Source: Rhodospirillales bacterium
GTDB taxonomy: Bacteria; Pseudomonadota; Alphaproteobacteria; Bin95
Length of the DNA stretch: 15,166 nt
Reading direction: 5' to 3'
Assembly: GCA_038143065.1 (NCBI GenBank)
Contig: JAYQLI010000024.1
Location: 1 to 15,166 of the forward strand
In this document: positions 1 to 15,166 of the stretch, piece after piece
Layout of the letters: the number at the start of each line of letters is the position of its first letter
Position numbering within the stretch: the first letter of the stretch is position 1
Notes under the pieces: generated by a model
The model's input: only the letters and a program-made list of their open reading frames with translations
Database searches by the model: none
Told to the model about the DNA's origin: nothing
Translations under genes and position numbers: made by a program

Positions 1-41
1 GTACCTGGTGTGCAGCTCATTTTCAAAACAGTGTATTTTTA

Positions 42-71
42 TTGACAACCGACCAACAGCTCACTTAACAT
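42..71 (+). promoter_or_regulatory. Candidate sigma70 promoter upstream of the hydantoinase/oxoprolinase operon
   Basis: Perfect -35 TTGACA at 42-47, an 18-nt spacer and -10-like TAACAT at 66-71, in AT-rich non-coding DNA about 185 nt upstream of the ATG at 255. Confidence 0.45.
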
Positions 72-204
72 TTTTGATAGCATGGAGAACGAGAGCGGCA
101 GAATGCAAGTTCAAGGTTTAAGGATAAATTTAGGGCGCCGAGCGACTGGATGCGATCTCGTCGTATAATTTAAAAAGAATTTTTAGCCGTTTAGGCACTA
201 TTCG

Positions 205-220
205 TTCCGAGTATTCGGAT
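205..220. promoter_or_regulatory. Palindromic candidate operator
   Basis: TCCGA-gtat-TCGGA inverted repeat (206-219), 35 nt upstream of the first start codon. The cognate regulator is not in the window. Confidence 0.3.
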
Positions 221-254
221 TTGCATCACCTCTTCTCATTTTGGTTGATTTCCC

Positions 255-2350
255 ATGAGCATCAGAAAAAGACTTCGCCTTGCTGTCGATATCGGCGGAA
301 CTTTCACTGATACGGTTTTGGTCAATCGGCAGAGTCATATCCTAGCTACCACCAAGACACCTACAACCCCAAATAACCCTGCGCATGGGGCTATTGATGG
401 CGCAAGACGGGTGCTGGCCGAAGCTGGAGTGAATGGTCGCAGATCGACGGCTTCATCCACGGAACGACGCTGGCCACCAATGCGCTGATCGAGCGGCGGG
501 GCGCCGTTGTAGCAACCGTCACGACTAAGGGGTTTCGCGACATCCTCGAAATTGCCTATGAGCGGCGCTATAGCCAGTATGACATCAACCTAGTCAAACC
601 AGATCTGATAGTACCGCGCTCAAGCGCCTTCACTATTGGTGGGCGCATGGATGCACGTGGGCGGGAACTGGAACCGCTTGAAGAGGTATCGCTTGCCCGG
701 CTGGTTGAGGAACTAACGGCCAGCGGTGCAGAGGCGGTGGCGATCTGCCTGATGCATGCCTATGCCAATCCAGTGCATGAGCTTAGGCTCCGGGATCTTC
801 TGCAAGCGCGGATGCCCGATCTAGTGATTTCGCTATCGCATGAGGTCAGCCCAGAGGCGCGCGAGTTCGACCGGCTTTCGACCACCATCGCCAACGCTTA
901 TATCCAACCACAAATGGCCAGCTATCTGGCAGGTTTTCAAGCCCGCTTCAACGATGAGGGGCTGACCTGCCCAATTTTGATGATGACCGCTAGTGGCGGC
1001 ATGACTACGATGGAAACCGCCGCACGTTTGCCAATCCGACTGGTAGAATCGGGCCCTGCCGGTGGAGCTATTCTGGCTGCACGCATCGCCGCCGAAACCA
1101 GCGAGCGTGAGGTGCTCAGTTTCGATATGGGCGGAACCACAGCAAAACTGTGCCTGATCGACCATTTTCGACCGCAAAGCGCACGCAAGTTTGAAATCGC
1201 ACGGGCAGCACGGTTCATTAAGGGTCGGGCATGCCGGTGCGCATCCCTGTGATCGAAATGATCGAGATCGGTGCCGGTGGCGGCTCCATCGCGCATGTGG
1301 ATCGGCTGGGCCGTTTGCAGGTCGGACCGGAAAGCGCAGGCTCGGAACCAGGACCGCAGCTTTTGCAAAGGAGGCACAGAGCCCACCGTGACCGATGCCG
1401 ACGTTATGCAAGGATTGATAGAGCCCGGCTGCTTTGCCGAGGGGCGGCTGGCGATTGACATGGAGGCAGCGCAAGTGGCGCTTGAACAAGGTGTCGGACA
1501 GACTTTGGGGCTTGATGCGGCACAGGCTGGGCGTGGGATCAGCGAGATCGTAGACGAGAACATGGCAAACGCGGGCCGGATGCATGCCGTGGAATCTGGT
1601 AAGGATCTGGGGGCGCGCCTGATGATCGCCTTTGGCGGCAATGGACCTCTGCACGCAACCCGGGTGGCGCGGCGCTCACAAGTCGACCGTATCCTGATCC
1701 CACGCGATCCCGGGGTCGGTTCGGCGGTGGGGTTCCTGTTCGCGCCGGTCTCGTTCGAAATCATCCGCTCGCGCTATGCCCGGCTCGAGGACCTTGAGCT
1801 CGACGGGCTCAACACCTTTTTTGATGAGATGAGAGATGAGGCTATTTCAGTTGTACGGGCAGGTGCACCCGAGGACGCGCTAACTCAGCGGAGGCAGGCT
1901 TTCATGCGCTATCACGGGCAAGGTCACGAAATCGAAATATTGCTACCAGACCGTGCGCTGGAGCAGGATGACATCCCCGCGCTACGGCGGACCTTTGAGA
2001 GAGAATACAGCCACCAATTCAGCCGCGCAGTGCCAGGCATGACTATCGAAATTCTAAACTGGTCGCTTGAGGTTTCCTCTGAACCACGCGCCCTTGAGCA
2101 CTATCCCGAACCTTCCACAAGACAGCGAGCAAGTCCCAACAGGTACCGCTCCATTTTGTGCGATGTCACCGGCGCTTGGCGCGAGGCAGAGGTGCACGAC
2201 CGGGCTTCGCTGCACCCGGGCGATCACCTTTCAGGCCCCGCCCTGATCATCGAGCCGCAGACCACCACCCTTGTCAGCGCCGATTTCTCAGCCAATGTGG
2301 ATGGTGGCGGCAATATCTGGCTCAACCGCAACTGGGAGGGGGGAGAATGA
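255..2350 (+). CDS. hyuA: Hydantoinase A / 5-oxoprolinase (ATP-dependent lactamase) ATP-binding subunit; frameshifted in this sequence
   Basis: Joining frames gives the family motifs in order: [112 protein letters not shown]. Frame breaks lie near 430, 1225 and 1355-1370. ORFs 255..488, 647..1252, 1231..1458 and 1271..2350 are pieces of one gene of about 700 aa. Confidence 0.93.
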
Positions 2351-3997
2351 AAATGACAGACACACGATTACAGGTCATGGAATCGGCTTCTGGCCGTGGT
2401 CGAGGAACAGGGTCAAGCGCTGATACGCGCCGCCTTTTCCCCAATCGTGCGCGAGTGTGGGGATATCTCGGCAGGTATTTTCGACCTTCAGGGCCGGATG
2501 CTGGCGCAGGCCGTGACCGGCACGCCAGGGCATATCAACACCATGGCCGAAGCAGTAAAGACTCTGCGTGGGCACTTCGAGCTTCAGGATATGAAACCGG
2601 GCGACATCTACATGACCAACGATCCGTGGATCGCCTCCGGCCATCTTAACGACTTCCTTTTTAATGATGCCGGTATTTCATAAGGATCAAATTGTCGGCT
2701 TTACCTCCTGCACCTCCCATCTGGTTGATCTAGGCGGGTTGGGCATGGGCCCCGAAGGCGCAGATATCTATGACGAAGGTCTGCTAATCCCCCCCTGTAA
2801 GCTGGTGGACGCGGGTGCACTGAACACGCTTCTGATGGAGATCATCAAGGCCAACTCACGTGAACCCATTGCTAATGAAGGCGATATCTATGCGTTAATC
2901 GCCTGCTGTGAAACCGGAGCAAAACGGCTTGCGGGTATGATGGAAGAATTTGCCATCACCCATCTAGACGATTTGGCCGAGTATATCATCAACACATCCT
3001 ATCTCGGCACTGTCGAAGCCATTGCAGAGCTGCCAAAGGGGACATGGCACAATGTGTTAACAGTCGACGGCTATGAGCAGGAAATAGACCTGCATGCTGC
3101 CTGACGATTGCCGAGGATAATATAACGCTGGATTTCGACGGCACCTCGGGTCTGTCGAACAAAGGCATCAATGTGCCCTTGAACTATGCCCACCGCCTAT
3201 TCAGTATTTGCTCTTCGCTGTATCATAGGACCGGATATTCCAAATAATACGGGTTCGCTTGCCCCTTTCCACGTCACCGGTCCAAAAGATTGCATCCTGA
3301 ACGCTCAGCCCCCAGCGCCGGTGGCCATGCGCCATACGCTGGGGCAGATGACGCCCGATTTGGTCTATGGTTGTCTTGCGCAAGTTCTGCCCAACAAGGT
3401 TCCTGCCGAAGGCGCTTCCTGCATGTACGACCTGCCTCTGCGCCATGTGCCTGAAGCGGTGTCACGGGGGATGAACTATTCGCGTTGGAACTGGTGTTTT
3501 CCGGCGGCACCGGTGCGCGGCCCGGTCTGGACGGGCTTTCGGCTACGGCGTTCCCGTCCGGTGTCTGGGGTTCACAGGTGGAACCCACCGAAGCGGTGGC
3601 ACCGGTCCTGATTACGCGGCGCGAGCTCAAACCCGACAGCGGCGGCGCTGGGCGACAGCGCGGTGGGTTAGGGCAGTATATCGAGATGCGCTCCTCGAAA
3701 GATGAGGACTTCATGCTATTCCTTTCGGTCGAAAGGGTTTTGAACCCAGCGCGCGGCCGGTATGGCGGAGGCTACGGGGGCGGCAGGGCGTATTCGCATC
3801 GGAAATGACGGGGCCGATCTGCCAGGGCAAAGGAGAGGTCCGCGTAAAAGCCGGAGAAACACTAATCTTTGAAACCCCAGGCGGTGCAGGCTTTGGTCTA
3901 CCAAAAAGAGCGAAGCCGCGAGGACGTCCGACGCGACCTTCGGGAAGGGTTAATCGGCCCAAAGGCAGCCCGCGAAATCTATGGAGTTGAGCCATGA
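2347..3997 (+). CDS. hyuB: Hydantoinase B / oxoprolinase catalytic subunit; frameshifted in this sequence
   Basis: ATG 2347 overlaps the hyuA stop (ATGA) after a G-rich RBS. Motifs: RAAFSPIVRECGDISAG, NDPWIASGHLND, SHLVDLGG, EGLLIPP, LDFDGTS, DSGGAGRQRGGLG, ETPGGAGFG and C-terminal AAREIYGVEP* (TGA 3995-3997). Frame breaks lie near 2378, 2660, 3100, 3190, 3470 and 3780-3960. Confidence 0.92.
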
Positions 3998-5071
3998 TCA
4001 GACCTACCCCTCATGTGGCGGCAATGTCGCCTTATGCGCTCGCTGAACTGAATGCACCGGCGGGCAAGCGCGTCATATCGCTGTCGCAAAATGAAAGCCT
4101 GCGCCGACCAAGCCCACAGGTGAGCGACGTCTTGGTAAGCGCCATGACAAACGCGCATCTCTACCCCGATCCGGAATGGACTGAGTTGCGCAACGCACTG
4201 GCCGCGCTGCATGGCATCCCAGCCTCGGGCATTCTCTGCGGCAACGGCTCGATGGAGTTAATTGCCTGCCTAACGCTAACTTATTGCGATGAGAAAAGCG
4301 CGGTTCTTGCACCCGCCCATGCCTACCCGTTTTTCAGAACCGCCGCGGGTTTGGCGCGAGCGCGTTACGATACCGCGCCCGAGGTCGGCGTGACCGCTTC
4401 AGTCGATACTCTGCTTGCTGCGGTCAGCCGGATACCCGCATCGTCTTCGTCGCAAATCCCGGCAACCCTACCGGCACCCGCATCCCGTGCTGAGCTTGAC
4501 CGCCTGCGTAAAGGGTTGCGTGGGGATATCCTGCTTGTCATCGACGAAGCCTATGGTGAGTTCGCCGACCATCTGGGTGAGCCCTATTCGATCTAGTCAG
4601 TCAGGGCGACACGGTGATCCTGCGTACATTTTCTAAGGCCTATGGCTTGGCCGGAATACGGGTGGGCTGGGGTCTATTCCCCTGAGAACATCGCCAGTGA
4701 GGTTCGTAAGGTCATGAACCCAAACAACGTCTCTGTTGCCTGGCAGACTGCTGATGCAACAGCTCTGTCTGACCAGGCCTATATGCGCGAGACCTGCGCA
4801 ATCACCGCCGGCCTGCGTGACGGTTTTTCGAACCGCTTGCGCAAAGTAGGCTTTATATAGCTGAAAGCTTTACTAATTTCGCACTGATCCGTTTTACGAT
4901 GCCCAGGCGGCTCAACAGGCGGACGCGATCCTGCGCGCTGAAGGCGTGGTTGCGCGTGCACAAAGCGTTGCCGGGCTGCCTGACTGCCTGCGTGTTACAG
5001 TTGGGACAGCGGAAGATCTAGATCTTGCAGCAAGTCTTTTGGAACATAGGGCTAAAGGAGGAAAGGCATGA
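3994..5071 (+). CDS. HisC-like class I/II PLP-dependent aminotransferase; frameshifted in this sequence
   Basis: Motifs: LSQNES, YPDP, CGNGSMELI, FVANPGNPTGT (alternate frame, about 4445-4480), LVIDEAYGEF, the PLP-lysine motif ILRTFSKAYGLAGIRVGW (Lys codon AAG 4635-4637), NFALIRF and LRVTVGT. Ends LLEHRAKGGKA* with TGA 5069-5071, overlapping the next ATG. Confidence 0.9.
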
Positions 5072-5809
5072 CAAAATCACGTGGACGGGAGGCGTTTCGG
5101 CATTCTAGTACCCTTCACTAACACCAACCTTGAACCTGACATGGTCCTCTTGCGACCCGACGGTGTATCTTTACATTTCGCCCGCATGGGTGGCTATGAT
5201 CAGGATGAAATACCCGATGCCAACCAGATGCACGGGCTGGGCGCGGCTGATCTTGCTGAGCCTCTGTTCCTGCTTCAGGGTGTGCGCGGATGTGATCTTA
5301 TATGGGTGCACATCGGCGACGCTTACCCACGGATTAGACTTTGACCGAGCGCTCGCCGAGCGGATCAGGGTTGGCATAGAAGCGAAGACGGTCACCGCAG
5401 CGGGCGCACTGGTACATGCACTTGAGTTCATCGGGTAAAGCGTATTGGCTTTGCCTCGCCCTATGTATCCGCGATCAATAACATGGCCATCGATTTCCTG
5501 GCAGAAGTTGGCGTCGAAACAGTGGCTCGCTCGAGGTGGGCGAAGCGCTGGATAATTACGGACAGGGCGAACTGAACCCGCAGGCCGTGTATGATCTGGG
5601 CCTTGCCGCCGATCATACTGAAGCTGAGGCGCTTTGTCCTGTCCTGCACAGACATGCGCAGCATCGAGACCATTGCGCGGCTTGAGCAGGCAGTAGGCAA
5701 GCCAGTTATCAGCTCAAATCAGGCTATGATGTTTCAGGCTATGCAACTGGCCGGTATCGGGGAACCCATGACAGGGTTCGGACAGCTTCTGGAAAGGGCT
5801 CGGCTATGA
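5068..5809 (+). CDS. Asp/Glu racemase / maleate cis-trans isomerase family protein; frameshifted in this sequence
   Basis: Strong RBS AAGGAGG before ATG 5068. Motifs: GILVPFTNTNLEPD, LHFARM, ILYGCTSA (Cys 5307-5309), RIGFASPY, LSCTDMR (Cys 5645-5647) and GKPVISSNQA. Both catalytic cysteines of the family are present. Confidence 0.88.
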
Positions 5810-7152
5810 GATTTGACCGGATTGCCGAATTCACTCTGTCTGGGCGGGATATTCCGCAAAGTGCGCTAGATATGGCCGCGACGCTTCTAATCGATACGGT
5901 AGGTGTGGCAGCGGGAGCCACTGGCCTTGCAGCCGGTCGTATTGCGCGTGATCACGCTTTTGTCTTTCACGGCGCCGGTGCGCCCGAACACGCAGCCTCC
6001 ATGATGTTCGATGGCAGACGCGCTTCGGTCCCGGGTGCAGCCTTTGCCGCGGCCACTCAAATTGACAACCTTGACGCGCACGATGGGCTCAACCAAACCA
6101 AGGGCCATATCGGCTGTGCTGTGGTGCCCGCATTGTTCGCCTTTGCCGAAAATCAGCCAGAACTAATGGCGCGCGACGCCCTAAGAGCGCTGGTCGTGGC
6201 CTACGAGATCGCGGCACGAGCTGCCTTTGCGCTACACGCTTCTGTCAGCGACTACCATACCTCAGGGGCATGGAATGCATTAGGCGTTGCAGCAATCGGG
6301 TGCCGCCTTAGGAGCGCAAATCCCGATCAGCTTCGTCAGGCTTTTGGTATTGCCGAATATCACGGCCCCCGGAGCCAGATGATGCGCGAGATTGCCAACC
6401 CGACTATGCTGCACGACGGTTCAGGCATGGGGGCTCTAATCGGATCAATGGCCGCGCTCATGGCGATGAACGGGTTCACCGGCGCCCCTGCCATAACCGT
6501 GGAGAACGAGGATGCGGCGCAGTTCTGGGGCGATCTGGGTGAGGTCTGGACGATCGAACAGAACTATATCAAGCCTTATCCAATCTGCCGCTGGGCGCAT
6601 GCAGCGCTTGATGCTTTATCCGAGTTGATGCGCGCGCACAGGTTTCACGCAGACGACGTTACTAGTATCACTGTGAACACTTTCGCCGAGTCTGCTGCGC
6701 TTTTTCCGGGAATGCCCGCGACCACGTCTCAGGCCCAGTATTCCTTGCCATTCGCTCTTGCCGTGATGCTCGTGCACGGCCGGATCGGACCCAATGAGAT
6801 CACTGGTACGGGGCTAACCGAGCCGCAAGTTTCAGCTTTGCTTCCTCGCATTTCAGTGCACGAAGCCGCTAGGCATTCCGAGCGCTTCCCCGAGGGCCGC
6901 TGGTCGGATGTGACAGTAGAGTTGAAAGACGGCAGGATGCTGGCATCGGGAGAAATGAACGCACGCGGCGGACCCGAGGCGCCGATGGATATGCATGAGG
7001 TCGAAGCAAAGTTTCACATCATGGCCGCGGCACTCTCCAAGGCACGCCGACGGACCATTTGGGAATTGCGCGAACAGCTTATGCAGCCGGAAGTAAAATT
7101 CGAGGAACTAGCGCGACTTGTTCGCGTGCCAATGGAGGAAATACATGCCTGA
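5806..7152 (+). CDS. MmgE/PrpD family protein (2-methylcitrate dehydratase / iminodisuccinate epimerase fold)
   Basis: Intact 448-aa ORF with an ATGA overlap. Motifs: LLIDTVGVAAGA, LDAHDG..KGHIG, ALVVAYEI, YHTSG, KPYPICRWAH, AQYSLPFALA, RGGPEAPM and EVEAKF. Confidence 0.92.
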   Translation: MRFDRIAEFTLSGRDIPQSALDMAATLLIDTVGVAAGATGLAAGRIARDHAFVFHGAGAPEHAASMMFDGRRASVPGAAFAAATQIDNLDAHDGLNQTKGHIGCAVVPALFAFAENQPELMARDALRALVVAYEIAARAAFALHASVSDYHTSGAWNALGVAAIGCRLRSANPDQLRQAFGIAEYHGPRSQMMREIANPTMLHDGSGMGALIGSMAALMAMNGFTGAPAITVENEDAAQFWGDLGEVWTIEQNYIKPYPICRWAHAALDALSELMRAHRFHADDVTSITVNTFAESAALFPGMPATTSQAQYSLPFALAVMLVHGRIGPNEITGTGLTEPQVSALLPRISVHEAARHSERFPEGRWSDVTVELKDGRMLASGEMNARGGPEAPMDMHEVEAKFHIMAAALSKARRRTIWELREQLMQPEVKFEELARLVRVPMEEIHA

Positions 7153-8113
7153 CACCCCGCGCATTATCTTGCACAATAGTGATACCGTGCACCTTGCTCA
7201 GTTGTTGCAGGCACGCTATCCGCATGCGGATTTTCGTGAATGCGACAGCTACGACGCCCTTCCCATACAAATCGAGAGCTACCGCCCCGAAGTGGTCTAT
7301 TCCGTGCGATTTGCAGGCACTCCGGGCTTTCCACGCGACGCACTTTTTGGCTCCCATGGCCCACGCTGGATTGCCAATGGCGGAGCGGGAACTGACCATT
7401 ACGGGCAATGGGATAAGACAAAAACGACGGTGACCAATGCCGCAGGCGTAGCCGCTGGTATGATGGCGGAATACATCTTCGGCGGCTTTTTACATTTCAC
7501 GCTTGATATCCTTGGACTGCAACAGGACAAGGGTGCGCGGGTCTGGAACTCTCGGCTTCTCAGCCCGCTTGCCGGAAAGACGCTCTTGATCGTCGGTCTT
7601 GGTCATACCGGAAGGGCGGTGGCGAAACGAGCTAAGGCTTTTGATATGACTGTGGTGGGAACACGGGCCCGACCTCAACCGATGGATTATGTTGACGAGG
7701 TGCATGCGGCCAGTGACCTGCTCAAACTGCTGCCGCGTGCAGATTTCATTGCAGTCTCTACGCCGCTCATCGCCTTGACACGCGGCCTGATCGGCAAGGA
7801 TGAAATCGCACGGATGAAGCCCGGTGTAATTCTCGCCGATGTCTCCCGTGGTGGTGTGGTGAACCAGTCTGACCTATATAACGCGCTTAAGGCCGGGCAT
7901 GTGGCGGGCGCGGCATTAGATGTTTTCGAAACCGAACCCTTGCCACTGGACAGCCCGATCTGGGCACTCGATAACGTCATCGTCTCTCCGCATTGCTCGT
8001 CGGTCTACGCGGAATGGGAAGAAGCCTCGTTCCGGCTTTTCCTAGATAATTTAGACCGCTGGATACAAGGCGAGAGACTCATGAACATAGTAGACCCAGA
8101 ACGTGGATATTGA
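7145..8113 (+). CDS. D-isomer-specific 2-hydroxyacid dehydrogenase
   Basis: ATG 7145 follows GGAGG and overlaps the MmgE/PrpD stop. Motifs: GAGTDH, TNAAG, Rossmann IVGLGHTG, and the catalytic Arg/Glu/His in DVSRGGVV, ALDVFETEPL and SPHCS. Confidence 0.93.
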   Translation: MPDTPRIILHNSDTVHLAQLLQARYPHADFRECDSYDALPIQIESYRPEVVYSVRFAGTPGFPRDALFGSHGPRWIANGGAGTDHYGQWDKTKTTVTNAAGVAAGMMAEYIFGGFLHFTLDILGLQQDKGARVWNSRLLSPLAGKTLLIVGLGHTGRAVAKRAKAFDMTVVGTRARPQPMDYVDEVHAASDLLKLLPRADFIAVSTPLIALTRGLIGKDEIARMKPGVILADVSRGGVVNQSDLYNALKAGHVAGAALDVFETEPLPLDSPIWALDNVIVSPHCSSVYAEWEEASFRLFLDNLDRWIQGERLMNIVDPERGY

Positions 8114-9042
8114 AGGAATTGCCAAAGCTCAAAGATTATTAGACCAACCAATTTTGCAGGCTGGTACTAAAGAAGTTGGGAACAATATAAATGGTCCTTC
8201 TCTATTGAAACGCCTAAATGGTTACCCAACTGCTTAGGTCGCTACTATCTTTATTTTGGACATCACTTTGGCCAAAATATTAGAATGGCATTTTCAAATA
8301 ATCTAACAGGGCCTTGGAACATCTATAAAGGGGAGTTCTTGACCTGAAAGAAACCCCATTTACCCACGAGAGACCCAATGTAAAACAACCTAAATGGGCA
8401 ATGGAAAAAGGCGTGGATGGTCTTTATCCGCATATAGCTTCACCCGATGTGCATATTAACGAATTAGATAAATCTTTAGAAATGTTTTTTCACGGCTTGG
8501 ACCATGACGGAGAACAAAGAAGTTTATGCGCAGTATCAAATGATGGACTAACTTGGCGGGTTCGGTCAAAGCGCATCAATCAAACTTATCTCAGGCTCTT
8601 TCAATATAAACACAACAAATACGCCCTGGGCTGGGGCGGCCAAATCCTAAAGAAAAATTCATCAGGTATATTTGAAATGGGCCCATGGTCTTTTGGCAAT
8701 CAAGGCCATCGCCATGCTGGTGTTTTGGTTCGGGGTGATAAATTACACGTAGTGTGGACACGTATTGGAGAAGCTCCCGAACAGATACTATACTCCACAA
8801 TTGATATGTCACACTCTTGGCGAGACTGGTATGCGACTAAAGCACAAGTGATATTAAAGCCTAAATTTGATTGGGAGGGCGCAAATTTACCAATATCAAC
8901 TTCCACCATCGGAGGACTTGCAAAACAAGAACATGCCCTTCGTGATCCTTTTTTATTTGAACAGAGTGATGGGGTTTATATGGTCTATACAGGTGGTGGA
9001 GAAACTAGCATTGGAATTGTAAAACTATTTTTAAAAATTTGA
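8103..9042 (+). CDS. Uncharacterised five-bladed beta-propeller glycoside-hydrolase-like protein; frameshifted near the 5' end
   Basis: Upstream of ORF 8401..9042 the sequence reads GTG(8103)-DIEGIAKAQRLLDQPIL...NNINGPSL / PKWLPNCLGRYYLYFGHHFGQNIRMAFSNNLTGPW / VLDLKETPF, then continues into HIASPDVH, SNDGLTW, RHAGV and LRDPFLF..VYMVYTGGGE. These blade motifs resemble GH32/43/130-like propellers. Frame breaks lie near 8205 and 8330; the start codon is tentative. Confidence 0.7.
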
Positions 9043-9095
9043 GTTACTTGATTCATTACAGTTATTGGGAACCTAGGCAGTAAGAGAGGGGTCAA

Positions 9096-9494
9096 ATGCA
9101 AAAATATTCTGGTCGATGTCTATGCGGGGCTATAAAATTCAAGACCAATGCATCACCATTATGGACCGCCCTTTGTCATTGCGAGACCTGTCGAAGGGCT
9201 TGCTCAGCTCCAGTTGTTGCTTGGGTTAGCTTTAAAGAGAACACAGTCACTTGGACAGGCAATCTCAACTATTATAAATCTTCTGAACATGGAACCCGAG
9301 GGTTTTGTGGAACGTGTGGGACACAAATGAGCTTTGTAAGTACCCGTTGGAAAGAACAGGTTCATCTTTATGCAGCATCTCTTGATGGGTCACCAGATTA
9401 TAAGCCTAGTTTACATTGCTACTTTGGCGAAAGATTAAGATGGATCTCTATTAACAATGATTTGCCAAAGTTCGAAACTTCTGCCCCACAATAA
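9096..9494 (+). CDS. GFA (glutathione-dependent formaldehyde-activating) / CENP-V family zinc protein
   Basis: Motifs GRCLCGAI, CHCETCRR and RGFCGTCGT, with RBS-like GAGAGGGG upstream; intact 132 aa. Confidence 0.92.
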   Translation: MQKYSGRCLCGAIKFKTNASPLWTALCHCETCRRACSAPVVAWVSFKENTVTWTGNLNYYKSSEHGTRGFCGTCGTQMSFVSTRWKEQVHLYAASLDGSPDYKPSLHCYFGERLRWISINNDLPKFETSAPQ

Positions 9495-9575
9495 ATGTCG
9501 GCTGCAAACAAGAAGCTTAACTTCAGCAATTTGGGTTAGCTGGTATTCACCCACAAGGAAAGGTTAGGTGTTAAA

Positions 9576-9923
9576 ATGAATAGTTTGATCAAAATGGAAG
9601 AGGATCAAATATTAAGCATAGTTGAAGCACTTATGGATAACTGTTTGGCAGGATCAAATGAGAACAATCATGCCAAGCATGTTAAAGATTTCACTGATAG
9701 AATGAAGAGAATTGTAACCCCAGAAAATCTTGCACAACAACTTTCACAAAGCCCAAGATCTTATTTCAGAGAGAGAAAGTTTATCGCTCTATTTAAACGT
9801 GAAAACTCTGTAGCGGTTGTGTGGAAGCAATATATATCGCTTTCGGAGGATGAACTTGTTAATCAGGCCATTTTTGTTCAGCGCGACAATAGAATTCTAA
9901 TTGATCATTGTATGATTTGCTAA
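9576..9923 (+). CDS. Hypothetical protein (115 aa)
   Basis: Intact ORF filling the intergenic space, with a purine-rich upstream region and AT-rich codon usage like its neighbours. A helical N-terminus is followed by beta-strand-like segments. No family confidently recognised. Confidence 0.75.
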   Translation: MNSLIKMEEDQILSIVEALMDNCLAGSNENNHAKHVKDFTDRMKRIVTPENLAQQLSQSPRSYFRERKFIALFKRENSVAVVWKQYISLSEDELVNQAIFVQRDNRILIDHCMIC

Positions 9924-10008
9924 TGTTAAAAAATGTGAAGCTATATTGCAAACGAGGTTGCCGATCTATTAATGATTTCAATTACGTCTTCCAAAACGGA
10001 GTTAGGGC

Positions 10009-11031
10009 ATGAAAGCAATTGTTGACCCACGCCAGGCCAAGCATAACCCACAACACTTCATGGCCACAGGTAAAGTTTTACCAAACCCAGAGCAGCCACG
10101 CAGAATTGAAGTCCTTCAATCAGGTGCTATTGCAGCAGGTGCGAGTTTTACTTCTCCAGAAGATTACGGAATGGGCCCAATTGCAGCAATCCATTCTCCC
10201 CAGTATTTGACATTCTTACAAACTATTTATTCTCGTTGGAGTCGTCTTGAAAACAGTGGACCAGAGGTTATTCCTAACATACACCCTAAGGCCCGATCAG
10301 ATAACTATCCCAAATCTGCCGTTGGGCAGGCAGGGTACCACCAAGCAGATACAGCTTGTCCCATAAATGGCGATACTTGGGGGTCAGTTTATTGGTCTGC
10401 GCAAACTGCCATTAGCGCTGCGGAACTTATAAAAAAAGGTAATGATTGTGCCTATGCATTATCCCGACCTCCTGGGCATCATGCTTTTTCAGACTTAGCC
10501 GGTGGTTTCTGTTTCCTGAATAATTCAGCTATAGCCGCGCAACATTTATCCTCTTATGGCAATCGTGTCGCAATTTTGGACGTAGACGTTCACCATGGAA
10601 ATGGAACTCAAGGTATTTTCTACGAGACGAATGAGATATTTACTATTTCTTTGCATGCAGACACTAAAAGATTTTATCCATTCTTCTGGGGACAAGCGCA
10701 CGAGCGTGGGAAAGATGCTGGAAACGGTTACAACTTAAATATTCCTCTGACACGAGGAACGGGTAATGAAGAATATCTAGATGCTCTGCAAACTGCACTT
10801 AAAGCCGTTTCCACATTTGGCGCTGATGTGGTCGTTGTGGCTCTTGGTCTAGATGCTTATGAAAAAGACCCCTTAAAAGGTCTAGCTATTACTACCGATG
10901 GTTTTGCGCAAATTGGCGCTGCTATTGCCAGCCTAAGGTGCCCTGCTTTGTTTATTCAAGAAGGCGGTTACCTATCAGAAGAACTCGGGCATAATTTGAC
11001 AAGCTTTATGAATGGGTTTGGAGGTATCTAG
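10009..11031 (+). CDS. Histone-deacetylase-family enzyme, acetylpolyamine amidohydrolase (APAH)-like
   Basis: Motifs PEQPRR, RPPGHHA, GGFCFLNNSAIAA, ILDVDVHHGNGTQ (Zn ligands), ISLH, NLNIPL, ALGLDAY and QEGGY; GGAG RBS; intact 340 aa. Confidence 0.93.
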   Translation: MKAIVDPRQAKHNPQHFMATGKVLPNPEQPRRIEVLQSGAIAAGASFTSPEDYGMGPIAAIHSPQYLTFLQTIYSRWSRLENSGPEVIPNIHPKARSDNYPKSAVGQAGYHQADTACPINGDTWGSVYWSAQTAISAAELIKKGNDCAYALSRPPGHHAFSDLAGGFCFLNNSAIAAQHLSSYGNRVAILDVDVHHGNGTQGIFYETNEIFTISLHADTKRFYPFFWGQAHERGKDAGNGYNLNIPLTRGTGNEEYLDALQTALKAVSTFGADVVVVALGLDAYEKDPLKGLAITTDGFAQIGAAIASLRCPALFIQEGGYLSEELGHNLTSFMNGFGGI

Positions 11032-11179
11032 GCTTCACCTACGCCTTAAAAAGGTTCAATAAAATAAGCAAGTTGGGCACAGACGCACGCAAATTGCAAA
11101 TGTGATCCTCTATTTTGGAACCCACGGCTTTACGGGTTTTATGCAGTATTTCTGCTAATTCATTGATTTTATTTTTGAA

Positions 11180-12202
11180 CTAGGCCACAAATTGCCAAAT
11201 TACTCCAGAAAGCGTAGCGCCAAATATGCCTAACAAAATATAGGCAGCAAATACCTTTGACTTAACTAACGCCCAAACTGCAATAGCAGCAGGGATAGAG
11301 CTGATACCGCCCGCAATCATAAAACTCATAGATGCTCCTTTGCTCATACCCTGATTTAAAAGCGCATCAACAAGGGGAACAGCTGCATAACCGTATAAAA
11401 ATGCTGGGGCACAAAAAATAGCAGCACTAAAAATGGTAAAAAAGCTCTGCCCACCTACCAAGGTAACTATCAAATCTGCGGGCAGATACTTGATCACGAG
11501 CGCCTCTATCGTATAGGCAAGAGCTAACCATTTTAGGAGAAAGATCGCGTTTTCATATCCAGTTAGCTTAAATATCTCTACACGGTCAGCCTTTTGCCAA
11601 AAATACCAAACTGGCTCGCCTTGGAAAGGTTCTTTAATACCACAACAGCCACCAATTTGTGGCTTTTCTTTAAGTGGGTCTGTAAAAACTGGGGTCTTGT
11701 AAAACAACATGGTTAATCCCCCACCCAATATTCCAATACCCACTGCAAATATAGTTTTACCGATAGCAAAATCCCAACCAAGCGTGCCGCTTGTAATTAA
11801 AAACATGGCAGGGTCCATCAAAGGTGAGGATAGCCAAAACGCCATCACAGCACTCAATGGTGCTCCAATAGCTAGAAGTGCCGCTATAAACGGAATAACC
11901 TCACACGAACAGAAAGGTGATAAACCACCCAAGAAAGCTGCAAAAATGATCATTCTAAACTGTGGCCCTGAGAAGGCATTTGATAATAAATTTTCAGCAC
12001 CTGTAGCTTTTAAATAAGCAACCGCGAGCACTGCAAAGAGAATGAACGGAGCAGTACCCAGTAATGCTTTCAGCATGAATGATAACGTGTCTGTGAACAC
12101 GTCCAGATCCCAAATAGAAAGAAAAACAAAAATCAAAATCAAAGTAGCAAAAGCTTTATCAATCGATTTATATGATTTTTGAAAATTAGTTAGATCAGTC
12201 AT
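11180..12202 (-). CDS. Predicted permease, ArsP_1/DUF318-type two-repeat membrane protein
   Basis: Multiple hydrophobic helices. Signature LSPFCSCEVIP, MAFWLSSPLMDP and a second-repeat GASMSFMIAG; central loop contains GGCCG. Confidence 0.88.
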   Translation of the reverse strand: MTDLTNFQKSYKSIDKAFATLILIFVFLSIWDLDVFTDTLSFMLKALLGTAPFILFAVLAVAYLKATGAENLLSNAFSGPQFRMIIFAAFLGGLSPFCSCEVIPFIAALLAIGAPLSAVMAFWLSSPLMDPAMFLITSGTLGWDFAIGKTIFAVGIGILGGGLTMLFYKTPVFTDPLKEKPQIGGCCGIKEPFQGEPVWYFWQKADRVEIFKLTGYENAIFLLKWLALAYTIEALVIKYLPADLIVTLVGGQSFFTIFSAAIFCAPAFLYGYAAVPLVDALLNQGMSKGASMSFMIAGGISSIPAAIAVWALVKSKVFAAYILLGIFGATLSGVIWQFVA

Positions 12203-12259
12203 TTCTATTATTTATCTTCAGCTTAAGTCTATAAAACAAAACTACTATGGAATTACACA

Positions 12260-12607
12260 ATGCGCAAAATTTTTTCACAAAAAAACCTACACCCAAACAT
12301 CTCAAAGCAAGTTTTGGAATACCATAAAGAAGTAATCAATGAAGTTGAGGAAGCTATTGAAGAAAATCAAATTGTAATCGTAGGGATGAGATGGAATGAT
12401 GCTGTCTGGCAAGCTAAACGAAACTTTAAAAAAGCTGGGAAAAAATTTAAGTACTTAGAATATGGTAGCTACACTAATGGGTGGAGAAAGCGTTTAGCTC
12501 TAAAGATGTGGTCAGGTTGGCCTACGTTTCCGATGATATTTATTGATCAAAAGCTTATAGGTGGGAATTCTGATTTAAGAAAGTTACTCAAATCCGATAA
12601 ATTGTAA
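12260..12607 (+). CDS. Glutaredoxin-like protein lacking cysteine
   Basis: C-terminal LKMWSGWPTFPMIFIDQKLIGG matches the monothiol-glutaredoxin WPTFP...GG signature. The protein has no Cys. It is divergent from the permease across 57 bp. Confidence 0.85.
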   Translation: MRKIFSQKNLHPNISKQVLEYHKEVINEVEEAIEENQIVIVGMRWNDAVWQAKRNFKKAGKKFKYLEYGSYTNGWRKRLALKMWSGWPTFPMIFIDQKLIGGNSDLRKLLKSDKL

Positions 12608-12618
12608 GAGCAGTATCT

Positions 12619-12644
12619 TAGCAACCTAACCGCTGCTAGTTTTT
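12619..12644 (+). terminator. Weak candidate intrinsic terminator after the glutaredoxin-like gene
   Basis: TAGCA(12619-12623)...TGCTA(12634-12638) followed by GTTTTT. The stem is short and the loop is 10 nt. Confidence 0.25.
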
Positions 12645-12681
12645 GACTCCTACCCTCTAATCTACTGATTCAATATAAAAA

Positions 12682-12702
12682 TGTAGCCCCAGTGCAGCCC
12701 CA
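12682..12702. repeat. Short tandem direct repeat TGYAGCCCCA x2
   Basis: TGTAGCCCCA (12682-12691) and TGCAGCCCCA (12693-12702): period 11, one mismatch, GC-rich within AT-rich intergenic DNA. Confidence 0.5.
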
Positions 12703-12728
12703 AAAACAAAAGTCCCGCGTGATTTTCG

Positions 12729-12950
12729 CTAAGCCTTTAACCACTTGTAACAAATCAATCTAAAATCATTGCGCCTATTTTTAATAAAGTAACCATAAAG
12801 TACAGTTAACGAGCAGACCGCCATTGCAGCGCCTAGTATTGGTAAGTCGCCATTAGCGAATATATCTGACCCAAATACGCCAACAATTCCAATAATTGAG
12901 CCTAGCCAACCTCTCTCAGCACCATTACCATTTCTGAATAAAACTTTCAT
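12729..12950 (-). CDS. Small hypothetical membrane protein, possibly extending to about 13030 across frameshifts
   Basis: The ORF has two hydrophobic segments (WLGSIIGIVGVFG and ILGAAMAVCSLTVLYGYFI) followed by a basic tail. Adjacent frames upstream read DKYVDFLNSFIVV / VIALLFALGV, with RBS-like GAGGA on the minus strand near 13032-13036. Confidence 0.5.
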   Translation of the reverse strand: MKVLFRNGNGAERGWLGSIIGIVGVFGSDIFANGDLPILGAAMAVCSLTVLYGYFIKNRRNDFRLICYKWLKA

Positions 12951-13260
12951 TATTGTTTACACCTAGCGCAAATAATAGTGCTATTACGCAACAACAATAA
13001 ATGAATTTAAGAAGTCGACGTATTTATCTAGTCCTCACTGCAACAATGAATGTTGATACTATGCGTCAACATACGCTACTGAACATACTATTTTTTTGGT
13101 GTTCATTTTTGATTTCTTTTATTGAAATTCTTTATATTAATTAATGTCGGCTTTGGCTTTAGTGGCTGTTCTTTGTCAAATCTAATGTTGGAAGTGTCTA
13201 TTGTACTGACTTAAATCTTTGTGCAATCGTTGTAGTGAGTTTAATTGCGTGAGGTCTTGA

Positions 13261-15114
13261 ATGTCAGAAGAAGAAATTGATCGTAAAATCACAGTAATCT
13301 TTGGTAAACTGACGTAGTCGGTTACAGCAAGCAGGCAAAGCCGATGAGCGGGACGGTTAAAAATCTCTGTGCTTGTGAAAAGTTGCTCACTGGGCTTTTC
13401 AAAAACATAAAGGTCGCTTGTTTAACACAGGTGGTGACCCTTTTCTTGCAGAGTTTTCTAGTGCAGTATCAGCTGTTGAATGTGCTGTAGAATTTCAAAA
13501 GCTATAGAACAAAGAAACTCCACTGAAGAAGCTACAGTAAAATTAAAATTCCGCATTGGTATAAACTCTGGTGATGTCATTAAGGAAAAAGACAACTTAC
13601 TGGGTGATGGGGTTAATATCGCAGCCAGACTTGAAGCATTAGCTCAAAGCGGTGGTACCACTATCTCAAATCAGTTTATGACTATGTCAAAGGAAAGACC
13701 CAACACGAGTTCAACGATCTTGTTTACAAAAAGTTAAACTAAACGAGTTTCATGCTTTTGACCTGCTTCCTTGATCCTTCATGCAAAAGAGAAAATTAAA
13801 AACAAAGTCTAAATCTATTATACCCATCATAGGCGCTATCGCTGCTGCTTTGTTTGTTGGGGGTTTTTATTTCACAATTTTTCAAAACATATCTGATAAA
13901 TCACAACCTATTATTTCTGGTGATAAACAATCTATTTTAGTTATGAATTTTGAGAATTTGACTAAACGATGAGGATAATGGGTTCCTAGTGACTGGAATT
14001 ACAACAAGCATTCGATCAGTGTTAAACAGTACGGAAAGTGTCAAAAGTTCCTCCTTCTAGCACTACTAATTTCATAGCTAAAAATAAGTATGAAAATGCA
14101 CAAATTCACAAAAAATATGGTTTTGACTTTATCTTAGAGGTAATGTGCAGGGTGCAGGAAATAAAATTAGAATAGCTGTCGAAATGACAGATCTGGATAA
14201 AGAAAGCATAGTTTTTTCTGATATATATGATTTTGATGAAACAAAAGATATTTTTGATCTTCAGGATGAAATTGCTCTTTCTATTCTTCAAGCTAAACCG
14301 AAATAACATCAAAATTTGCACGTCCTGAATTAGCATCTAATGATCCTGAGCTATATAAGATGCACATTAAAAAGTACAATCGCTTTTTCAAAAAATACAC
14401 GTGAAACTAATAAAAGGCAGAAAATCTCTGGAAAAAAGTATTAGAAAGGAGCCTGATAATTTTAGGTTTATGAATAGCTTTAGGATGGGTTTATTGGCAA
14501 AAAATAATTTAAGGATCTCGGAGAACCCCAAAGATGATATTCAACAAGGTTTAATGCTTGCTAAACAAGGTGTTGTCAATTCGTCAGGAACTCATGCACC
14601 TGCACTGTCACTGGAACTTTCACTTGAGTTAATGATGGGAAATCATGACGAGGCATGCAAAAAAGTTGAGAAAATTTTCCAGCATTCAGAAACAATATTT
14701 GATACTGCTTTGGGGGCTGCTGGAGCGCAAAACTGTGGAGATCTAAAGTCAGCCATATCAAACTATGAATATGTATTAAATGATGCACCGCATTTTTCTT
14801 CCTGGGCAAGAAATCTATACAGTTATGCACTGGTGGAAAATGGGGACTTTGATAAAGCGTTGAAATTTTTCGAAGCGGAGCTGCAGAAAGAACATGCTTT
14901 TAAAGGATTTCCACAAACTATGTATCTTCTTTCCGCATTTATTTATAAGAAAAGGGGTAATGAAAAAAAGGCGAATGATTTTTTCGCACAACAAAAAAAT
15001 GAAGATGGAAAAGGAAAAAGTGCTAAAATAATAAGAGGAGAATTAAGCATGCTTAAAAATAAAGGTTTTATAGACGACCTTATTAATGAGCTCAGCTCCT
15101 TAGGATTAACTTAA
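13261..15114 (+). CDS. Class III adenylate/guanylate cyclase domain + transmembrane helix + TolB-like domain + TPR region; heavily frameshifted in this sequence
   Basis: ATG 13261 follows GAGG. Joined frames give RKITVIF.TDVVGYSK, GRLFNTGGDPFLAEFSSAVSAVECAVEFQ, FRIGINSGDV and GDGVNIAARLEALA; a TM helix IIPIIGAIAAALFVGGFYFTIF; TolB-like SILVMNFENL, GNVQGAGNKIRIAVEM and DIFDLQDEIALSI; and a helical TPR-like C-terminus (ORF 14401..15114). Confidence 0.85.
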
Positions 15115-15166
15115 TTATTCAACGAAGACTCTAATGAGAGAAGCTGAATACCTTTTTCAGAAAAAA

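Follow-up and report, generated by a model that had tools for sequence, protein, structure and literature searches.

The six-gene operon

The stretch of DNA considered here, hereafter the window, is the whole of contig JAYQLI010000024.1 (C24; 15,166 nt) from the genome of a Rhodospirillales bacterium (GCA_038143065.1; G000). Between positions 255 and 8113 an earlier note, made from the sequence alone, had read genes for the two subunits of a hydantoinase/oxoprolinase-type amidase (HyuA and HyuB), a HisC-like aminotransferase, a two-Cys racemase/isomerase, an MmgE/PrpD protein and a D-2-hydroxyacid dehydrogenase, and had taken them for the operon of an uncharacterised lactam or amino-acid catabolic pathway. 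Pfam recovered all six families in this order on the + strand, and that the operon is real and conserved can be regarded as practically certain. Its features are the following.

42..71, + strand: promoter-like site (TTGACA-18-TAACAT) in the AT-rich leader 5′ of hyuA, from a consensus scan (10 of 12 positions); a match of pattern, which is no evidence of function
255..2350, + strand: hyuA, ATP-binding alpha subunit of a hydantoinase/oxoprolinase-type ring-opening amidase (Pfam Hydant_A_N, Hydantoinase_A, Hydant_A_C)
2347..3997, + strand: hyuB, beta subunit (Pfam Hydantoinase_B), with its start within an ATGA overlap with the hyuA stop
3994..5071, + strand: HisC-like class I/II aminotransferase (Pfam Aminotran_1_2)
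5068..5809, + strand: two-Cys racemase/isomerase with the maleate isomerase/EutA/AMDase fold (Pfam Amdase)
5806..7152, + strand: MmgE/PrpD-family protein, 448 aa, intact (N- and C-terminal Pfam domains above cut-offs)
7145..8113 (ATG) or from TTG 7118, + strand: D-isomer-specific 2-hydroxyacid dehydrogenase, intact (Pfam 2-Hacid_dh_C)
255..8113, no strand: high-GC island, which begins with the operon's first start codon and ends with its last stop codon

In the window the Pfam matches to the first four genes are spread over frame pieces (HyuA 249-2350 over three, HyuB 2357-3990 over five and Aminotran_1_2 3991-5071 over three; Amdase/Asp-Glu-racemase 5576-5809 on the last piece of its gene); prpD and the dehydrogenase gene are unbroken (MmgE/PrpD 5806-7152, 2-Hacid_dh_C 7118-8113). 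An intact twin is found in L009, a public contig labelled Rhodobacteraceae MAG (metagenome-assembled genome), in which positions 4186-16816 correspond to window positions 1-12620 with 99.1% identity (84 mismatches, 26 gap openings). All six genes are unbroken there (hyuA 699 aa, aminotransferase 360 aa), and the PrpD proteins of the two contigs are 99.8% identical. The genes had been described as overlapping, which they are at all five junctions: hyuA and hyuB share an ATGA, hyuB/aminotransferase, aminotransferase/racemase and racemase/prpD overlap by 4 nt each, in L009 likewise as ATGA, and prpD and the dehydrogenase gene overlap by 8 nt if the latter starts at ATG 7145 and by 35 nt if it starts at TTG 7118.

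Conservation of the gene order

A scan for PrpD with one genome per species gave 309 confirmed relatives, of which the best 80 were kept. Around these the six genes are colinear in 38 of the 80 loci, at least four of the six are present in 48, and in 33 of the 38 full loci the block has a length of 7,831-7,872 nt. Nine more loci are cut by contig ends (L012, L016, L018, L020, L032, L038, L044, L055 and L079), the dehydrogenase gene is missing in L019 and L051, and L028 and L035 consist of aminotransferase-racemase-prpD-dehydrogenase alone. Marine Rhodobacterales make up most of the carriers; a few are Hyphomicrobiales-type MAGs. Since 38 of 80 loci found through PrpD have the same six-gene order, the arrangement is far beyond chance, and the check that the earlier note had set for its proposal, namely conservation of all six genes in other genomes, comes out in its favour: they form a single block that is coupled in translation and moves as a unit. 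With PrpD as the anchor of all loci, blocks without this protein are invisible in the set.

In a midpoint-rooted tree of PrpD (77 rows, the short rows L020, L044 and L055 having been dropped) the six-gene form occurs on either side of the root, and reduced forms are nested many times. PrpD stands alone in 22 of the 77 rows, 18 of which are untruncated loci, and together with the dehydrogenase in 6. Judged by the well-supported branches, the full form must have changed at least 11 times and the form with PrpD alone at least 6 times.

Two modules

A search for longer relatives of the racemase yielded gene fusions. HyuB is fused to the racemase in five protein clusters, via linkers of approximately 50-120 residues, HyuB-racemase-aminotransferase fusions form one cluster with five member sequences, and racemase-aminotransferase fusions form another one; in a further cluster (P0001) the racemase is fused to PrpD, which could be the artefact of a lost stop codon. 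A metagenome scan with the fused HyuB-racemase-aminotransferase protein alone gave no match; a scan with an alignment of the HyuB fusions gave 80 HyuB-anchored loci. Within 9 kb of hyuB, 15 of these 80 have the racemase, 13 the aminotransferase, 6 the dehydrogenase and only 5 an orthologous PrpD. In at least six loci with ample flank (L103, L107, L108, L109, L120 and L139) hyuAB-(aminotransferase)-racemase occurs without an orthologous PrpD or the dehydrogenase.

The block is thus composed of two modules, hyuA-hyuB-(aminotransferase)-racemase (module 1) and prpD-(dehydrogenase) (module 2). From the fusions and from the module 1 loci without PrpD we place the two-Cys enzyme at the opening of the ring and not after PrpD; two modules with the racemase at this step are very likely. 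With PrpD standing alone in 18 untruncated loci, its substrate is not necessarily a product of module 1. Replacements within the loci fit a step from an amino acid to a 2-oxo acid: in L159 a Cys/Met-metabolism pyridoxal phosphate (PLP) enzyme followed by RidA stands in place of the aminotransferase, and in L109 a thiamine diphosphate (TPP)-dependent enzyme and a distant PrpD paralogue follow module 1. A plain 5-oxoprolinase with dispensable neighbours, which the earlier note had named as refuting its proposal, appears unlikely given the gene fusions and the co-conservation.

HyuA and HyuB themselves are fused in single open reading frames (ORFs) in L070 (1090-4881, 1263 aa) and L103 (5886-9617, approximately 1243 aa), to be compared with the solved N-methylhydantoinase of 1288 aa.

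Enzyme families and conserved residues

HyuA and HyuB, encoded side by side, are members of the hydantoinase/oxoprolinase family, and all their domains exceed the Pfam cut-offs, both in the pieces of the window and in L009, where the intact HyuB scores 474 bits with Hydantoinase_B. The closest solved relatives of HyuA are N-methylhydantoinase (7hk5, E 1.5e-108) and caprolactamase (6yra, E 8.5e-95), with which the pair shares fold and subunit design. It is not a caprolactamase in the sense of the NCBIfam CapA/CapB equivalogs (alpha 443 and beta 182 bits, cut-off 1000), and its partner genes are others; the caprolactam route uses an omega-aminotransferase. Nor do the scores reach those of the acetone/acetophenone carboxylases (238, 140 and 72 bits, cut-offs 1250-1500), for which an extra subunit gene is not present in the block.

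The aminotransferase has histidinol-phosphate aminotransferases as best solved relatives and scores 246.7 bits with the hisC model TIGR01141, under the cut-off of 276.55, so that it is not filed as HisC. S215-K216, D185 and Y188 are near-invariant in 50 orthologues and make up the Ser-Lys, Asp and Tyr pattern seen in fold-type I enzymes. The dehydrogenase (162 bits with Pfam 2-Hacid_dh_C) belongs to the D-isomer-specific family; its translation contains GLGHTG, SRGG and SPH, which we take to be the GxGxxG, Arg and His motifs. Its solved relatives are the Haloferax D-2-hydroxyacid dehydrogenase 5mh5 (E 3.3e-39), the phenylpyruvate reductase 8hpg and McyI, and it stays below the Dhydh_Halo equivalog (186 bits, cut-off 400).

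The racemase of L009 scores 77 bits with Pfam Amdase and E 1.3e-4 with PF01177, which is under the cut-off. It also remains under the cut-offs of EutA (TIGR02990, 110 of 318 bits), with no eutB or eutC among the annotated neighbours, and of the arylmalonate decarboxylase (AMDase) equivalog (73 of 225 bits); maleate isomerase 2xec is matched with E 3.9e-16. Residues C81 and C194, near-invariant in 51 orthologues, align with the Cys positions of the maleate isomerases 2xec and 4fq7, where they are presumably catalytic. Arylmalonate decarboxylase has a single catalytic Cys and a Gly at the other position; the enzyme is unlike it in that both cysteines are kept. Judged by its sequence, the racemase belongs to the two-base Asp/Glu racemase-maleate isomerase superfamily, whose mark is a pair of catalytic cysteines that face each other across the active site.

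PrpD is a clear member of its family (N- and C-terminal MmgE_PrpD domains 108 and 109 bits, cut-offs 32.1). Its closest solved structure is iminodisuccinate (IDS) epimerase (2hp0, E 2.9e-17), with which, as with cis-aconitate decarboxylase (7bra), it shares both Pfam domains. H101 and H151 are near-invariant in 78 orthologues; H101 aligns with H99, the proposed base of IDS epimerase, and the next conserved His with H150. Against this likeness stand the distance, the want of any NCBIfam model match and the second proposed base, Y145, which is unaligned, a Ser being found at its position, though the alignment there, next to an indel, is uncertain. The MmgE/PrpD family is described as having a basic pocket for polycarboxylates (PMC7347537).

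Every specific NCBIfam equivalog model (CapA/CapB, HisC, EutA, AMDase and the Haloferax dehydrogenase) was thus missed, and in open-access full texts and preprints no described pathway with this combination of genes was found, in agreement with the earlier note, whose author had not recognized one. A genomics paper on Helicobacter was the only one to contain both "hydantoinase" and "PrpD". A paper on sRNAs of R. pomeroyi deals with genes unrelated to the block.

Neighbouring genes and the link to N-demethylation

Neighbours were counted over the 48 PrpD-anchored loci with at least four core genes.

M81/MlrC-like peptidase: 12 of 48 loci
Peptide/nickel/opine-type binding protein, mostly followed by permease and ATPase genes: 13 of 48
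CocE/NonD hydrolase: 3 of 48
DHDPS-family gene overlapping the dehydrogenase stop: 3 of 48, and also in L125 and L127
Family III CoA-transferase: 4 of 48
DMGDH-like flavoenzyme: 9 of 48
MttB-family methyltransferase: 3 of 48
Carbamoylase: 1 of 48

A transporter or regulator common to all 48 loci was not found, the flanks being variable. The linked solute-binding protein or regulator on which the earlier note had counted for ligand screening is therefore not universal; a peptide/opine-type ABC system is present in 13 of the loci.

What the earlier note did not foresee is a recurring link to N-demethylation. A DMGDH-like or an MttB gene is present in 11 of the 48 loci, and in L070 and L073 mttB lies inside the operon, between the racemase gene and prpD. 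The HyuB-anchored loci L168 and L149 contain, in this order, a DMGDH-like gene, hyuA-hyuB-aminotransferase-racemase and, divergent from a LysR gene, prpD-(small ORF)-dehydrogenase-mttB; L168 also has an AraC/DJ-1 (GlxA-type) regulator, and GlxA/GbdR-type regulators are found in L168 and L108. On a plasmid of Leisingera sp. NJS204 a LysR gene divergent from prpD-mttB adjoins hyuA-hyuB-aminotransferase-racemase. On a plasmid of Ruegeria sp. SCSIO 43209 the LysR gene is divergent from prpD, which is followed by genes for four soxBDAG-like (sarcosine-oxidase-like) subunits, the dehydrogenase and mttB; this set is convergent with hyuA-hyuB-aminotransferase-racemase, and genes for a large FAD oxidoreductase and a class V aminotransferase are located upstream. 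The plasmid of Ruegeria sp. THAF33 (L101, 712-731 kb) carries the split form without demethylation genes. Module 2 is thus repeatedly associated with N-demethylation enzymes across lineages.

According to one study, MtgB-type proteins (PF06253) demethylate glycine betaine in aerobic marine bacteria, and up to seven MtgB-like paralogues per marine genome are thought to serve other methylated compounds (PMC12478193). According to another study, Sox-like operons can be N-methylglutamate dehydrogenases (PMC13236597). Genes resembling those for the stepwise demethylation of betaine in marine bacteria (MtgBCD, DMGDH, sarcosine oxidase/NMGDH), namely MtgB-like, DMGDH-like and/or Sox-like ones, are interleaved with the cluster in Ruegeria SCSIO 43209, Leisingera, L070, L073, L081, L149 and L168, whereas none of them is present in the window or in L009, which cannot be counted as such clusters. 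The glycine betaine and homarine pathways, for their part, contain no HyuAB, PrpD or two-Cys racemase; the homarine operon homABCDER, defined in 2026, codes for other proteins (PMC13236597).

A PrpD paralogue (46.6%) is located on plasmid 1 of Paracoccus denitrificans PD1222 (L184, 387-406 kb) in an apparent betaine catabolic cluster with a betaine-type ABC system, a nitrilase-like hydrolase, an acyl-CoA dehydrogenase, a CoA ligase, a GlxA regulator and a Rieske oxygenase, which suggests a wider role of PrpD-fold enzymes in quaternary-amine catabolism.

The proposed pathway and its alternatives

We propose that the block is a laterally mobile, conserved, two-module catabolic operon of marine Alphaproteobacteria, a picture to which as a whole we give a probability of about 0.5. 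The substrate would be a chiral cyclic amide, a lactam- or hydantoin-type carboxylate, whose stereocentre the two-Cys racemase would equilibrate and whose ring the ATP-dependent amidase HyuAB would open to an alpha-amino acid. The HisC-like aminotransferase would convert the alpha-amino acid to the 2-oxo acid, the dehydrogenase would interconvert the 2-oxo acid and the D-2-hydroxy acid, and the PrpD-fold enzyme would catalyze an acid/base reaction, be it an epimerisation, a dehydration or a decarboxylation, with one of the carboxylates of this pathway. The nature of the substrate, the role of PrpD, the order of the steps and the chemistry of ring opening are all inferred.

Because module 2 is elsewhere in operon with MtgB-like, DMGDH-like and sarcosine-oxidase/NMGDH-like genes, the substrate may well derive from an N-methylated (betaine-type) amino-acid metabolite, an origin to which we give slightly less than even odds. 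A bolder version, which we put forward tentatively and hold to be the less probable outcome, is that the block constitutes the half devoted to the carbon skeleton in a widespread, as yet undescribed marine pathway for an N-methylated (betaine-type) amino-acid metabolite that is, or passes through, a chiral lactam, and that it moves between bacterial families as a ready-made cassette. If true, three activities would be new: a two-Cys racemase dedicated to the lactam and forming a complex with an ATP-dependent lactamase, a PrpD-fold enzyme whose substrate is an amino- or hydroxy-carboxylate of betaine origin and a substrate-specific MtgB-like methyltransferase.

Several findings weigh against our proposal. 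Most of the fusion clusters have few members (one each in P0001-P0004 and P0006, three each in P0007 and P0008, five in P0005), and PrpD stands alone in the 18 untruncated loci. In 37 of the 48 loci there is no DMGDH-like or MttB gene within approximately 10 kb, the block in the window and in L009 has no adjoining demethylation gene, transporter or regulator, and the flanks otherwise vary, with the peptidase and the ABC system in 12-13, the DHDPS-family gene in 3 and the carbamoylase in 1 of 48 loci.

The closest logic among known systems is that of the classical hyu system; the lactam-opening HyuAB pairs of Ti plasmids are also close, and neither has this set of partners. Both lead to alternative substrates. 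In the first, a 5-substituted hydantoin would be racemized, opened by HyuAB to the N-carbamoyl-L-amino acid and freed of the carbamoyl group by a carbamoylase from elsewhere, before aminotransferase and dehydrogenase act. Pseudomonas sp. NS671 reportedly has, with hyuA, hyuB, hyuC and hyuE, an ATP-dependent HyuA/HyuB and a hydantoin racemase, and the pairing of HyuAB with a member of the Asp/Glu/hydantoin racemase superfamily, to which the two-Cys racemase fused with HyuB in the relatives of the block also belongs, is the classical hyu arrangement. N-Methylhydantoinase as best solved relative of HyuA points the same way, as do a hydantoinase/carbamoylase-family amidase (283 bits, cut-off 204) encoded directly upstream of hyuA in HIMB11 (L078) and the xanthine dehydrogenase and urate genes adjoining the block in Ruegeria THAF33. 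However, the block itself has no carbamoylase gene and one adjoins it in only 1 of the 48 loci, the racemase fits the Amdase, EutA and maleate isomerase models better than PF01177, and the aminotransferase, the dehydrogenase and above all PrpD, which has no role in this scheme, are foreign to the classical system. We consider hydantoin use improbable. In THAF33 the split form directly follows xdhABC, a xanthine/uracil permease gene, puuD and uraH, which may be a coincidence or may hint at a purine-derived hydantoin as substrate.

Catabolism of an opine lactam (a cyclised iminodiacid) is the second alternative and, in our view, an equally doubtful one. Here HyuAB would open a pyroglutamyl-type opine lactam, PrpD would epimerise the iminodiacid, a flavin amine dehydrogenase would split it, and aminotransferase and dehydrogenase would process the pieces. 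IDS epimerase as closest solved relative of PrpD is in keeping with this, and so are the DMGDH-like secondary-amine flavoenzyme upstream in 9 loci and the peptide/nickel/opine-type ABC system, which in 13 loci follows the block and in L070 lies inside the operon. The aga region of octopine plasmids is an opine-lactam catabolic region. For the succinamopine plasmid pTiEU6 it has been proposed that a HyuA/B-like pair opens lactam opines such as those of succinamopine and succinopine, with mmgE in the same region and peptide/opine-type ABC transport (PMC6733357). That function is itself only proposed, and pTiEU6 lacks an aminotransferase-racemase-dehydrogenase block. The marine cluster has its link with N-demethylation genes and not with opine oxidases, none of the opine oxidases or lyases is shared by all its loci, and its MttB-family and Sox-like genes indicate N-methyl rather than N-carboxyalkyl groups. 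Moreover, the PrpD homologues on Agrobacterium and Rhizobium plasmids are all below 60% identity, and Y145 of IDS epimerase is replaced by a Ser, subject to the uncertain alignment mentioned above.

Least probable, and very unlikely in our estimate, is the linear chain favoured by the earlier note, from lactam via amino acid, 2-oxo acid and D-2-hydroxy acid to a cis-enoate (dehydration by PrpD) and on to a trans-enoate (two-Cys enzyme): each family is capable of the chemistry assigned to it, maleate isomerases are the closest solved relatives of the racemase, the dehydrogenase resembles McyI, which acts on 3-methylmalate, and the racemase gene is directly upstream of prpD in the window, but the two-Cys enzyme travels with HyuAB and not with PrpD, being fused to HyuB or the aminotransferase in seven clusters and accompanying hyuAB in the six loci without orthologous prpD and dehydrogenase named above, PrpD and the dehydrogenase occur without it, and in the split versions the racemase gene belongs to the operon of hyuAB, with prpD located in a separate one that has a LysR regulator of its own. 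The other suggestion of the earlier note, a cyclised opine-like or pyroglutamate-like substrate for stereo-inverting enzymes, is a better fit than this chain. A biosynthetic role was set aside, since the genes linked to the block, those for peptidases, uptake ABC systems and demethylases, are of a catabolic type.

Frame breaks in the window copy

The earlier note had spoken of frameshifts, and it was right: counted against L009 there are 23 breaks in the first four genes. They are four single-base deletions in hyuA (431, 1222, 1354 and 1370), eight indels in hyuB (2378, 2661, 3100, 3189, 3466, 3776, 3825 and 3903), six in the aminotransferase gene (4425, 4486, 4582, 4679, 4852 and 4892) and five in the racemase gene (5087, 5287, 5435, 5532 and 5633); prpD and the dehydrogenase gene have none, and three more indels downstream bring the number to 26. 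Each of the 26 is 1-2 nt long, and homopolymer runs of at least 3, which hold only 19% of the bases, contain 19 of them. The share of sequence covered by stop-free frames of at least 250 aa is 31.6% in the 51 small contigs of G000 as compared with 64.6% in its main contig C35 (2.86 Mb). From their size, their homopolymer bias and the same fragmentation across the small contigs we conclude that the breaks are probably assembly errors and not decay.

The alternative is that the breaks are real, module 1 decaying in this strain while prpD and the dehydrogenase gene are kept under selection. It stays a live rival because the indels are confined to the gene set that other lineages have lost. That all 23 operon indels fall within the first 5,555 of 7,859 nt (P 3.4e-4 under uniformity), hitting the genes of module 1 and sparing module 2, is a point against assembly errors and mirrors the natural loss of module 1 elsewhere, PrpD or PrpD and dehydrogenase having been kept after loss of the rest in Tateyamaria and Roseovarius; only three indels occur in the next 4.4 kb. 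Decay is nevertheless unlikely: besides the uniform size and the homopolymers, 26 indels beside 84 substitutions at 99.1% identity are a very high share for natural divergence, the small contigs of the assembly are fragmented throughout, and the affected stretch begins at a contig end.

Several small contigs of G000 are without any stop-free frame of at least 250 aa; the low cover of the small contigs reflects either poor consensus quality or mass pseudogenisation of approximately 1.8 Mb.

A foreign island

The window copy is a foreign high-GC island, which the earlier note did not foresee. The block has a G+C (GC) content of 57.6%, as compared with 41.3% for the 254 nt before it and 41.7% for the 4 kb after it, with the steps at the hyuA start and the dehydrogenase stop, and the same pattern is seen in L009. 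The remainder of C24 has approximately 38-42% GC, the average of G000 being approximately 47%. DNA similarity to a complete Rhodobacteraceae genome (L010; 86.6%) is limited to positions 37-8125. None of the 36 other genomes of the host family gave a PrpD orthologue at E ≤ 1e-60, and comparison of the operon DNA with nine relatives of the genus and 15 further ones of the family gave, among the matches listed, short paralogous pieces of hyuA/hyuB with 63-83% identity and two short pieces over the aminotransferase and dehydrogenase regions.

Direct or inverted repeats are not present at the borders of the island, and near-identical DNA was not found on plasmids, the best plasmid matches having 72-75% identity over single genes. 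The flanks of L009 (1-4185 and 16817-21344) were not found in G000 by blastn; of five proteins encoded in the upstream flank four match G000 proteins at only 26-48% identity, the fifth (MarR) being unmatched. The tetranucleotide profile of the low-GC part of C24 correlates with that of the main contig with r 0.86; the corresponding comparison with L009 is biased by the shared sequence. C24 may have been mis-binned, or the 12.6 kb that it has in common with L009 may be a mobile segment.

Many more islands of 56-63% GC and some stretches of 34-38% GC are found in small contigs of G000 (for example C12 130-139 kb, C33 50-56 kb, C44 1-10 kb and C46 26-35 kb); the window is one case of a wider GC mosaic.

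Other features of the window

A low-GC ORF of 313 aa (8103-9042, + strand) overlaps the dehydrogenase stop and is broken by two indels in the window; it is intact in L009 (12298-13239). Neither Pfam nor NCBIfam gave a match to it, and a protein atlas gave unnamed Pseudomonadota clusters with weak GH43-like look-alikes. At its place L010, L015, L057, L125 and L127 have a DHDPS-family gene. The similarity to L009 ends at 12620, and in the remainder (12621-15166) there are a class III cyclase fragment (13480-13737) and an ORF of 237 aa (14401-15114). The cyclase region has DNA paralogues in G000 on C12 (71-72%), and an ArsP-type permease gene (11180-12202, minus strand) has one on C4. A search of the window with Rfam (E ≤ 1) gave a single snoRNA-like chance match outside the block and no tRNA.

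Significance

Marine representatives of the Roseobacter group recycle much of the pool of small nitrogen-rich metabolites from phytoplankton, and many of the genes involved are still to be found. The operon is present in dozens of marine genomes and combines enzymes not known to work together. The copy in the window holds a more modest lesson, being a foreign and probably mis-assembled instance of the operon, whose frame breaks should be taken as biology only with the support of reads. Cultured carriers exist in Nioella sediminis JS7-11, Aliiroseovarius sp. YM-037, HIMB11 and, on plasmids, Ruegeria and Leisingera. With the two modules, the racemase tied to the ring-opening amidase and the link to demethylation genes as leads, discovery of the substrate is tractable, and it could assign functions to a subfamily of PrpD, a subfamily of EutA-like racemases and a subfamily of ATP-dependent lactamases.

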